From Escherichia phage EP_H11: 64,000 nt of DNA. Below the pieces are notes generated by a model. That model ran no database searches, was not told the origin of the DNA, and saw only the letters and a program-made list of their open reading frames with translations. The translations under genes and the position numbers were made by a program. Positions 38,110-40,307 of the stretch are shown in pieces (position 1 is the stretch's first letter; every line of letters starts with the position of its first letter). The stretch lies in the sequence record OP688485; one strand, 5' to 3'.

Positions 38110-40053
38110 ATGGAAAAAGTCGCTGCTCTGGTAGAGCAAATCAAGAATGCGGCTAATGCATATTATAATGGTGACCAGCCCATTATTACGGACGAAGAGT
38201 TCGATGCTCTTACCGAGAAATTAGCTGAGCTGGACCCTAATAACCCACTCCTTACTACCCCAGGCTGGGGTGTAACCGAAGCTGCAGAACATCTGGCTAA
38301 GTGCCCACATGGCTCATTCGTGGGTGGTCTTGACCAGGTTAAGATCGGTGCTGTGGAAGAGGGATTTAACTTCCTCCATGGCCACGAAGAAGTTAAGGGA
38401 TTCGTTGCTTCAGCTAAGCTGGACGGTATCTCGGTAGTTCTGTATTACGACTACGACGGTAACTTCGTCCGTGGTTTAACTCGCCACGATGGTGTATTTG
38501 GTCTGGACATCACGAAGAATCTGGAGTGTGCAGAATTCCCTCGCCAGATTCCTAAAGGTATTAAAGAAGTCCGCTGCGAAATCGTTATTCCTGATGATAA
38601 GTTCGAGCGGATTAGTCACGAGTACAGTAACCAGCGTAATGCTGCTTCTGGTATTGCTCTGGCTAAGTATAGTGATCCTGCATTAATGGAACTGCTTGAT
38701 GTAGTTGCATATTCGGTAACGGCATTCTACGAGGATGTGGATCACGAGACATGGATGGATGACTACAACCAGCTTCTGCTGTGCTTAAGTAAGGCTGGGT
38801 TCAAAGTAGTTAAGTACTTCGTTCTTCCAGCAGGTTATGTCAATAGCTGGCTGGTTGCTAACCCACCATCTAAGTTCCGCGAAGATCCAGTCTGCAACTA
38901 CCTGCTGGATGGTGTAGTTCTCGGATCTATGAATGTTGACTGGGATGAGAATATGTTGGGCAAGAATACTGTCCATTATAAGATCAAGTATCAATCAGCA
39001 TTCTATGACACCACCGTGGTTAAGGTGCACTGGGTAGTTAGCGGTTACGGCCGAGTCGTGCCTACTGTTGAGTTCGAGACGGTAGACATGAGTGGCGTTA
39101 ATGTAACTTATGCATCCGGATGGAATGCTGAGTATATCAAGAATGCTGGTATCGGACCTGGCGCTAAGATCAAGATTAGTCGTCGTAACGAGGTAATTCC
39201 TCATATCGAAGAAGTCGTGGAACCCGTCACTGCGGTGATTCCAGAGTTCGTAGATGGGGTACGTACCTTCTGGGATGGTGTACACATCCGCATCAAGACC
39301 AAGCTTGACCCGATGGTGATTCGTACCATTATCCGAGACTTCGCTCCTAAGGGTCTAGGTGGCGTAAATATCAATAAGTTTGCTGAGCAGGCTAAACTTG
39401 ATGACATTTCCATGTTGAATGACATAATAAAGACTGGCCCATCTCATCCGGTATTCGGCATGGTAGAGATGTACGATGGTCCTCTCCAGCTTACTCGTCA
39501 GTCCTTCTTCAATATGAAGGAACGTCCTACCTCTATGGACCACATGCTGACTTGTACCTGGACGGATGGTCTTGGTTATGCTACAGGAATGCGTATTGCT
39601 ACTGCGGTAACCCGTGACCAGATGATTCGTGTGCTGCGTAACAATAGCTTCCACGACATGGTTAATGACGGTATCCAGGTCAATACCGAGGACTACGAAA
39701 TCTGTAAGGCAATATATGATGCCTGCATGGGTTCCGTAGCTAAGAAGATTGCAGAGAATCAGGAAGTAATCCTGAAGGTGCTGAATCTTCCTCTGAACTG
39801 GGTAGCCTCTAAGGTAGAGGAACCGCTTCCGGAAGGTAAGTTCAAGATCTGCTTAACTGGTAAGCTTAGTAAGCCTCGTAGCGAACTGGTTAACTCCTGG
39901 ATCAAATACGGCGTAGTCGAAGTCGGTATCGGCGACGCAGAATATCTGGTATGCGACAAGCCGAGTCAGTCCAGTAAGTTTAAGGCTGCCGAAGCTAAGG
40001 GTACCAAGATCGTTACCGAAGATCAATTCCGTAAAATCATTGGAGCTGAATAA
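38110..40053 (+). CDS. ligA: NAD-dependent DNA ligase
   Basis: LigA N-terminal YYNGDQPIITDEEFDAL block and adenylation motif KLDG. Confidence 0.85.
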   Translation: MEKVAALVEQIKNAANAYYNGDQPIITDEEFDALTEKLAELDPNNPLLTTPGWGVTEAAEHLAKCPHGSFVGGLDQVKIGAVEEGFNFLHGHEEVKGFVASAKLDGISVVLYYDYDGNFVRGLTRHDGVFGLDITKNLECAEFPRQIPKGIKEVRCEIVIPDDKFERISHEYSNQRNAASGIALAKYSDPALMELLDVVAYSVTAFYEDVDHETWMDDYNQLLLCLSKAGFKVVKYFVLPAGYVNSWLVANPPSKFREDPVCNYLLDGVVLGSMNVDWDENMLGKNTVHYKIKYQSAFYDTTVVKVHWVVSGYGRVVPTVEFETVDMSGVNVTYASGWNAEYIKNAGIGPGAKIKISRRNEVIPHIEEVVEPVTAVIPEFVDGVRTFWDGVHIRIKTKLDPMVIRTIIRDFAPKGLGGVNINKFAEQAKLDDISMLNDIIKTGPSHPVFGMVEMYDGPLQLTRQSFFNMKERPTSMDHMLTCTWTDGLGYATGMRIATAVTRDQMIRVLRNNSFHDMVNDGIQVNTEDYEICKAIYDACMGSVAKKIAENQEVILKVLNLPLNWVASKVEEPLPEGKFKICLTGKLSKPRSELVNSWIKYGVVEVGIGDAEYLVCDKPSQSSKFKAAEAKGTKIVTEDQFRKIIGAE

Positions 40054-40307
40054 TGTCTGTAACTTTGGAACAGGTTAAAGATGCGCTGCGATCTGCAGTA
40101 GCTGACATCATGATGGTTGATATTCTGGAAGTAACTGAAACTACTACTGGTGAGCAGTTAGGTGCAGATTCTCTGGATGAAGTGGAGATCATCATGCGTG
40201 TTGAAGATGAACTGGGTATGGAAGACTGTATCCCAGACTTCGACTATGATAGCGACGATACTCTGGAGCAGGTGGCAGAAAAGATCGTGGCAGTTCTGAA
40301 CCAGTGA
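40053..40307 (+). CDS. acyl carrier protein-like protein
   Basis: 84 aa acidic protein with the phosphopantetheine-attachment motif LGADSLDEVEIIM; TAATG overlap with the ligase. Confidence 0.65.
   Translation: MSVTLEQVKDALRSAVADIMMVDILEVTETTTGEQLGADSLDEVEIIMRVEDELGMEDCIPDFDYDSDDTLEQVAEKIVAVLNQ

Follow-up and report, generated by a model that had tools for sequence, protein, structure and literature searches.

Directly behind its NAD-dependent DNA ligase gene, Escherichia phage EP_H11 (sequence record OP688485) carries a short gene whose product is almost certainly a member of the acyl carrier protein (ACP) family. The gene lies in a stretch of 64,000 nucleotides, referred to here as the window, that is approximately 94% identical to Escherichia phage vB_EcoM_IME392 (MH719082, 116 kb), the sole close relative among 50,697 phage records. 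IME392 encodes a 100% identical ACP (MH719082.1, 6800-7051), and the gene is missing from the GenBank annotation of that record, which lists just 85 features over its 116 kb. As a lineage the phage is an orphan: measured by polymerase and ligase, the isolates that come nearest are Ralstonia phage RP13 and Acinetobacter phage Ab1-TPeters, at approximately 30-33% identity.

The ACP gene and the ligase gene are tightly joined (Table 1). The TAA stop codon of the ligase (40051-40053) and the ATG of the ACP (from 40053) share one nucleotide in the sequence TAATG, and the ribosome-binding site of the ACP gene falls within the 3' end of the ligase gene. In each of the six further loci examined, namely IME392 and the metagenomic contigs L002-L006, the ligase gene stands immediately 5' of the ACP gene, and the start/stop overlap recurs in IME392 and in all five contigs. 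The GGAG upstream of the ATG is the same in the loci checked for it (IME392, L002, and L003). The stem-loop that follows the ACP stop codon is also kept in IME392, L002, and L003, with a compensatory change from A-T to G-C in L002, and probably indicates where the ligase-ACP unit has its 3' end or is processed.

Profile and structure searches agree on the family of the protein. It matches Pfam PP-binding (PF00550) at 32.4 bits (E 1.1e-7), above the curated gathering score of 20.8, and its residues 6-83 match positions 13-89 of the 93 in PHROG 5934, 'acyl carrier protein' (E 8.1e-9; PHROG profiles have no curated cut-off). The AlphaFold model, with a predicted local distance difference test score (pLDDT) of 81, contains helices at residues 5-20, 43-54, and 71-82 and places Ser40 directly ahead of helix 2; the short helix III does not show up in it as a helix. 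All 50 matches listed by Foldseek against the PDB are ACPs or ACP domains, at probabilities of 0.89-1.00 and template modelling (TM) scores of 0.48-0.72. A profile of the clade finds 77 PDB sequences at E up to 0.01, and the 60 listed are without exception mitochondrial or bacterial ACPs. The composition is strongly acidic (Asp and Glu 23, Lys and Arg 4).

Ser40 is the predicted 4'-phosphopantetheine attachment site. The serine and the surrounding D-S-L-D-x-x-E-I-x-M are unvaried in four close homologues, which came from 5.8 billion proteins, and in the ACP of Ralstonia phage phiRSL1. Elsewhere in the six-frame translation, G.DS[LI] occurs in just two places, neither of them within a plausible gene. 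Pairwise ratios of nonsynonymous to synonymous substitution rates (dN/dS) among the ACP relatives are 0.13-0.16 at dS up to 0.88, and the gene is therefore under purifying selection. The original prediction, which described an acidic 84-aa ACP-like open reading frame (ORF) with an LGADSLD attachment motif and a start coupled to the ligase gene, is thus confirmed on each of these points by the Pfam and PHROG matches, the fold, the dN/dS values, the alignment of the serine in every homologue, and the one-nucleotide overlap kept in relatives.

Close relatives of the protein are scarce. In a HMMER search of 1.84 billion representative proteins, its own cluster alone falls below E 1e-10, and the next best match stands at 3e-8. 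A DNA-level search of complete E. coli genomes found no homologue of the gene, and a plasmid search yielded a weak match to a Burkholderia acpP and nothing else. Judged from these searches, the product represents an isolated, fast-diverged lineage.

Other features of the window are listed with the locus in Table 1. From about 39800 to 40450, some 650 nucleotides that run from the 3' end of the ligase gene through the whole ACP gene and the hairpin into the beginning of the gene after it are essentially 100% identical to IME392, against a background of 84-97% per 200-nucleotide window (mostly 91-96%), which points to recent recombination in this segment. UUCG-loop stems of at least seven pairs on the plus strand number seven in the window versus 0.4 expected from shuffles, and six of the seven are intergenic. 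Those at 2177, 6321, and 41565 are followed by T-rich tails resembling intrinsic terminators, and those at 40313 and 47654 have in common the form TATAGG...TTCGG...CCTATG without a T run. The UUCG stem-loops of the window may be 3'-end or processing signals of phage transcripts. The assignment of the split RNA polymerase genes is indirect: a 522-aa gene at the same position in L003 has RNA_pol_Rpb1 domains, and IME392 annotates beta and beta' here.

Table 1. Features of the window, numbered from its first nucleotide, beginning with the ligase-ACP locus
Feature	Position	Strand	Remarks
NAD-dependent DNA ligase gene	38110..40053	+	647 aa; Pfam DNA_ligase_aden, DNA_ligase_OB, Nlig-Ia
GGAG ribosome-binding site of ACP gene	40042..40045	+	7 nt 5' of ATG, within 3' end of ligase gene
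Acyl carrier protein-like gene	40053..40307	+	84 aa; ATG start; TGA stop, then TAA; net charge about -19
LGADSLD motif, residues 36-42	40158..40178	+	Ser40 codon TCT at 40170-40172
Stem-loop, 11 pairs, UUCG loop	40313..40338	+	6 nt past ACP stop; no T run after it
UUCG stem-loops	2177-2198, 6321-6342, 33420-33437, 40313-40338, 41565-41584, 47654-47677	+	intergenic
UUCG stem-loop	21612-21633	+	inside polymerase gene
Thymidine-hypermodification-type cluster	6420-15958		about 25 kb upstream of ACP gene
Methyltransferase, weak match	6420-7160		hypermodification cluster
Three proteins without family	7262-8170, 10261-11295, 11343-12422		hypermodification cluster; Pfam, PHROG
BCCT betaine/carnitine/choline transporter, full length	8174-9556		hypermodification cluster; Pfam E 5e-91
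PIG-L-type deacetylase	9643-10254		hypermodification cluster
HMUDK_hel (aGPT-Pplase-type) protein	12422-13393		Pfam scan
P-loop kinase	13483-14205		Pfam scan
TS-like enzyme	14202-15275		Pfam scan
HD phosphohydrolase	15359-15958		hypermodification cluster
Unassigned proteins	22571-24926, 52204-53013		
Split multisubunit RNA polymerase beta/beta'-like genes	26582-28096, 29676-31244		phage of about 113-116 kb
Acb1-like protein, candidate counter-defence	32054-32560		weak match, 23 bits, below cut-off of 27
PinA-like Lon protease inhibitor, candidate host-takeover gene	40582-41001		Pfam scan
Cassette: DUF7217, two MptE-like proteins, two glycosyltransferases	41609-45002		
NADAR-domain protein, candidate counter-defence/host-takeover gene	53010-53669		Pfam scan

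Relation to known carrier proteins

The phage protein shares with E. coli AcpP the fold, a similar size and acidity (AcpP has 20 acidic and 5 basic residues), and the identical GADSLD serine motif, in which Ser40 aligns with AcpP Ser36, but overall identity is 31%. Similarity is unevenly distributed. Over the stretch aligned to AcpP D35-D56, which comprises helix II and Ile-Pro-Asp, 13 of 22 positions are identical by manual count from the alignments, among them D35, S36, L37, D38, E41, M44, and D56, which AcpS and many partners of ACPs use as contacts. Helix II is largely preserved, whereas helices I and IV and the connection between helices II and IV have diverged; this connection holds a two-residue insertion and an acidic DFDYDSDD loop that is invariant in the clade. 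NCBIfam AcpP models (TIGR00517 and PRK00982 type) score 30-36 bits against cut-offs of 66-106, the best reaching 36 bits against 71 and TIGR00517 reaching 30.4 against 70.45. The gene also lies outside a fab operon and has no fatty-acid-synthase neighbours. Taken by its sequence and setting, the phage protein is not an AcpP orthologue.

Mitochondrial ACPs (NDUFAB1/SDAP and ACPM) are among the best PDB sequence matches, at E of approximately 3e-7 to 1e-5. Mitochondrial ACP also doubles as a subunit, structural or regulatory, of unrelated complexes, including complex I and the Fe-S cluster machinery. The resemblance is an analogy only, and an LYR-type partner was not found for the phage ACP. DltC and the aminoacyl and peptidyl carrier proteins are likewise small stand-alone PP-binding proteins, but the phage protein scores 20.4 bits against a cut-off of 68 and 18.7 against 52.35 in DltC models.

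The closest phage match is ORF083 of Ralstonia phage phiRSL1, at 36% identity. It too is a lone ACP gene in a large lytic phage; no biosynthetic partner is annotated in its vicinity, and a nucleic-acid ligase gene lies immediately on its 5' side. Its product is much less diverged, however, being 45% identical to AcpP, and the gene upstream encodes an RtcB-type RNA ligase rather than an NAD-dependent DNA ligase. Identity to AcpP is 45-57% for the ACPs of phiRSL1, Xanthomonas phage phiXF1, BCSR5, and Bajun. PHROG 5934 and 4154, both 'acyl carrier protein' in the auxiliary or host-takeover category, already list solitary phage ACPs. Their function has been described as unclear (PMC5463345), and membrane modulation has been suggested (PMC13573597). 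The EP_H11 protein is an unusually divergent addition to this known group.

Partner enzymes and neighbouring gene sets

The original prediction took a phage carrier protein to imply acyl or aminoacyl transfer chemistry, and partner enzymes were sought by several routes. The Pfam scan covered all window ORFs of at least 45 aa and 10 further IME392 ORFs outside the window; the structural-module ORFs of IME392 were outside it, and the partner check is complete for the window and partial for the remainder. The scan returned no AMP-binding family (DltA-like or other adenylating enzyme), no ACPS/phosphopantetheinyl transferase (PPTase), no ketoacyl-synthase or acyltransferase, no fab-type family, and no other ACP-dependent family. 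A PHROG scan of ten ORFs with no Pfam assignment, or next to none, gave nothing, save families of unknown function for one. Across the window and the IME392 remainder, a generic ACP hidden Markov model (HMM) found this carrier protein and no second one. A PPTase signature and a phmmer search with AcpS matched nothing in six frames of the same sequence, and no AcpS-like ORF was seen. These searches have limited sensitivity for very divergent enzymes. Elsewhere in the IME392 genome, the annotated genes are for replication and the virion.

The phage ACP appears to be an orphan carrier because no loading, priming, or acyl-using enzyme was detected. A dedicated polyketide synthase, nonribosomal peptide synthetase (NRPS), or acyl-sugar carrier would be accompanied by a cognate loading enzyme and a PPTase, and neither was found. 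The expected transfer chemistry therefore receives no support, and the acyl transferase or ligase partner proposed as a check did not emerge from the window or the IME392 ORFs scanned.

Individual candidates fared no better. The 302-aa protein at 7262-8170 was considered as an ATP-grasp-type 'ligase partner' on the strength of an E-x-N-x-R-like motif spotted by eye; it has no Pfam, PHROG, or PDB match, and its AlphaFold model, with a pLDDT of 39, is of too low quality to search for folds. PDB sequence searches with the 344-aa and 359-aa proteins without family gave no match. The conserved 77-aa gene downstream of the ACP (PHROG 7644) was also rejected: unrelated phages carry it, some with genomes of only 40-70 kb, and none of these has an ACP match. 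Its 'LYR' tripeptide is taken as chance because the protein has no Pfam match.

The window also holds a thymidine-hypermodification-type cluster, and the ACP had been proposed to feed this modification pathway. The distance of some 25 kb and the pattern among other phages argue against the proposal. The aGPT-Pplase-type protein has homologues in 359 phage records, which are mostly from Ackermannviridae; the 40 listed include no phage that gave an ACP match. Among distant relatives, Ab1-TPeters has kinase and TS-like genes, and neither it nor RP13 has an ACP match in either of two tblastn searches. A 'putative ACP' has been reported in a Vi01-like phage (PMC10892097). In Vi01 itself there is no such annotation and no HMM match in 100 of the 157 kb, the middle 57 kb lying outside the search. 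With no co-occurrence among the records listed, a link between the ACP and thymidine hypermodification was rejected. The BCCT transporter, encoded by a phage within a base-modification cluster, is unusual and seems to merit separate study.

A link with the glycosyltransferase cassette downstream was rejected as well. The MptE-like proteins of the cassette fall into the sialyltransferase-like PHROG 4603 and 2111, one glycosyltransferase belongs to PHROG 1962, and the other (43414-44382, GT1-type) is 48% identical to Dbn of phage P1. The cassette is homologous to P1 dbn, and P1-type records have no ACP match in either tblastn search. Conversely, the four genes after DUF7217, encoding the MptE-like proteins and glycosyltransferases, are missing in L002, which retains the ACP. 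The cassette therefore occurs without a detectable ACP, and the ACP without the cassette. In L003, which lacks the PinA-like gene and its two neighbours, the ACP is one small gene away from the DUF7217/glycosyltransferase cassette.

ACP genes of other phages

With E. coli AcpP as query, phage genomes yielded few genuine ACPs. In phiRSL1 (L009, 4727-6246) the ACP gene begins 3 nt after the gene for the RtcB-type 'tRNA splicing ligase'. The 113-kb phage phiXF1, distantly related by its polymerase and ligase, has the ACP gene between gyrB-like and gyrA-like topoisomerase II subunit genes (L013, 4281-8989), and in BCSR5 and Bajun it is found among small early genes. A scan of IMG/VR added 37 loci with ACP-like genes, none of them a close relative of the EP_H11 gene. 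A census of neighbours in 33 of the 37 loci, based on 132 ORFs of at least 205 aa no more than 3.5 kb from the ACP gene, shows recurrent DNA methylases, DnaB, AAA_25, NinG, dCMP deaminase, ATP-dependent DNA ligase, and thymidylate synthase. Among the 25 of 66 families listed, none belonging to fatty-acid, polyketide, or NRPS pathways appears twice, a result that leaves room for single cases.

One T-even-like contig (L053, IMG/VR UViG_3300025887_000010) encodes a 233-aa dCMP deaminase with a C-terminal ACP domain containing DSLD (7521-8219). The HAE and PCxxC motifs of the deaminase are intact, and a near-identical copy is present in L050. An ATP-dependent DNA ligase gene (8546-9739) lies downstream. 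As in EP_H11, a phage ACP domain with DSLD is found in a setting of nucleotide metabolism with a DNA ligase gene adjoining. The fusion, which is rare, nevertheless belongs to a separate lineage, its ACP forms the C-terminal domain of a larger protein instead of standing free, and its ligase is ATP-dependent and downstream. A second member (P0155) is 57% identical; because just two diverged members were found in all, the fusion is not a strong Rosetta-stone argument. We know of no earlier description of a dCMP deaminase-ACP fusion.

Beyond the clade, the ligases of Acinetobacter Ab1-TPeters, Ralstonia RP13, and Bacillus SP-15 have no ACP-like ORF after them, and a general ligase-ACP linkage was rejected, since the closest isolate homologues of the ligase lack a downstream ACP. 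Phage ACPs are typically orphans within DNA and nucleotide metabolism, and in three lineages they adjoin three different nucleic-acid ligases. By rough estimate, three such adjacencies in about 25 lineages are approximately 10-fold above random placement in a genome of about 200 genes but near expectation if ACPs are confined to replication modules of about 40 genes. The ligase adjacency of phage ACPs is an unexplained pattern, not a result.

Role of the phage carrier

The best explanation overall, close to evenly balanced in our judgement, is that the gene encodes a strongly diverged stand-alone carrier of the ACP superfamily that is co-translated with the ligase and directed at the host. The ACP is made from the same message as the NAD-dependent DNA ligase through translational coupling, both genes being situated in the replication/host-takeover part of the genome. 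Host AcpS would phosphopantetheinylate Ser40, a step suggested because helix II and Ile-Pro-Asp keep the AcpS and partner contact residues of AcpP. The holo-protein might then act via host ACP-binding proteins, serving as an alternative that accepts or donates acyl groups, or competing for some of the partners of AcpP. Helix I, helix IV, and the DFDYDSDD loop are too diverged for a mere extra copy of AcpP, and the diverged surfaces would add a phage-specific feature to the carrier. The protein would thus be a host-directed auxiliary factor outside the thymidine-hypermodification and glycosylation gene sets. The host-dependent mechanism itself, AcpS priming followed by binding to host ACP partners, is a tentative proposal that could well be wrong. 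A role in host lipid metabolism, also raised by the original prediction, is possible and compatible with the preserved helix II.

Four observations weigh against this explanation. Several phage proteins of 300-480 aa have no family and might hide a partner. Residue conservation is the sole basis for the host-AcpS step. The other phage ACPs are far closer to AcpP, and interfacing with the host has no evident need of such extreme divergence. Finally, the coupling to the ligase is kept in every relative examined and is left unexplained by a host-interface model.

A hidden partner would turn the ACP into the carrier of a phage pathway whose enzymes are too divergent to recognise, delivering acyl or aminoacyl groups to the hypermodification pathway or to the glycan produced by the MptE-like and glycosyltransferase genes (42.3-45 kb). 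The aGPT-Pplase-type set (HMUDK_hel, P-loop kinase, TS-like) with its three family-less neighbours and the short distance between ACP and cassette in L003 are consistent with this possibility. It is nonetheless unlikely, given the remoteness of the hypermodification cluster, the lack of an ACP phage among the listed records, the silence of the ACP HMM in the searched part of Vi01, the absence of Ab1-TPeters and RP13 from both tblastn results, the mutual independence of cassette and ACP in P1-type records and L002, and the failure to find an adenylating or acyl-transfer enzyme in the ORFs scanned. The overlap with the ligase, constant in the relatives examined, instead recalls an adaptor or accessory subunit serving the DNA or nucleotide metabolism of the phage, with the ligase as putative partner and the ACP fold acting as a protein-binding module, whether or not it bears the prosthetic arm. 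In E. coli, the SMC protein MukB depends on AcpP as a partner, and mitochondrial ACPs rank high among the PDB matches. The settings of the ACPs in phiRSL1, phiXF1, and L053, together with the DNA methylases, DnaB, thymidylate synthase, and similar genes that mostly neighbour viral ACPs, point the same way. Yet the nearest ligase homologues (Ab1-TPeters, RP13, and SP-15) stand without an adjoining ACP, and the three adjacencies come near the expectation for replication modules, which makes such a role distinctly unlikely. The broader proposition, that phage ACPs generally belong not to lipid or secondary metabolism but to DNA and nucleotide metabolism, as accessory components, and that the present one is a ligase-coupled cofactor or adaptor using the ACP fold, and perhaps the phosphopantetheine thiol, in reactions on nucleic acids, is equally doubtful.

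An unmodified acidic decoy would act on the host by other means, sequestering AcpS or coenzyme A, inhibiting host phospholipid synthesis, or mimicking DNA or AcpP towards a defence system or nuclease. Overproduction of apo-ACP poisons E. coli by inhibiting glycerol-3-phosphate acyltransferase, and the high negative charge of the protein and its place among candidate host-takeover genes (PinA-like, Acb1-like, and NADAR) fit such a role. The acidity, however, is general to ACPs, AcpP included; the DSLD-x-VE-x-x-M recognition helix is strictly conserved, as expected for a protein that needs modification; and no defence-related family matches the ACP. A decoy is accordingly a very unlikely reading. 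That the ORF is a decaying remnant or arose by chance, as its omission from the IME392 annotation might suggest, is effectively refuted by the dN/dS of approximately 0.15 at dS up to 0.88; with start codon, ribosome-binding site, and serine conserved and the Pfam score above its curated cut-off, the chance of it is negligible.

Large phages repeatedly carry solitary ACP genes, for which 'auxiliary metabolic genes' is the routine label. The EP_H11 gene seems an informative case, with the partner-recognition helix alone preserved and the gene tied to a DNA ligase. Because the host is E. coli, with AcpS, the ACP interactome, and genetics to hand, the question of what phage ACPs do becomes directly testable. 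If the protein merely supplements host lipid synthesis, it would be an ordinary auxiliary gene; if it acts in DNA metabolism or rewires host ACP partners, it would represent a new phage takeover strategy.

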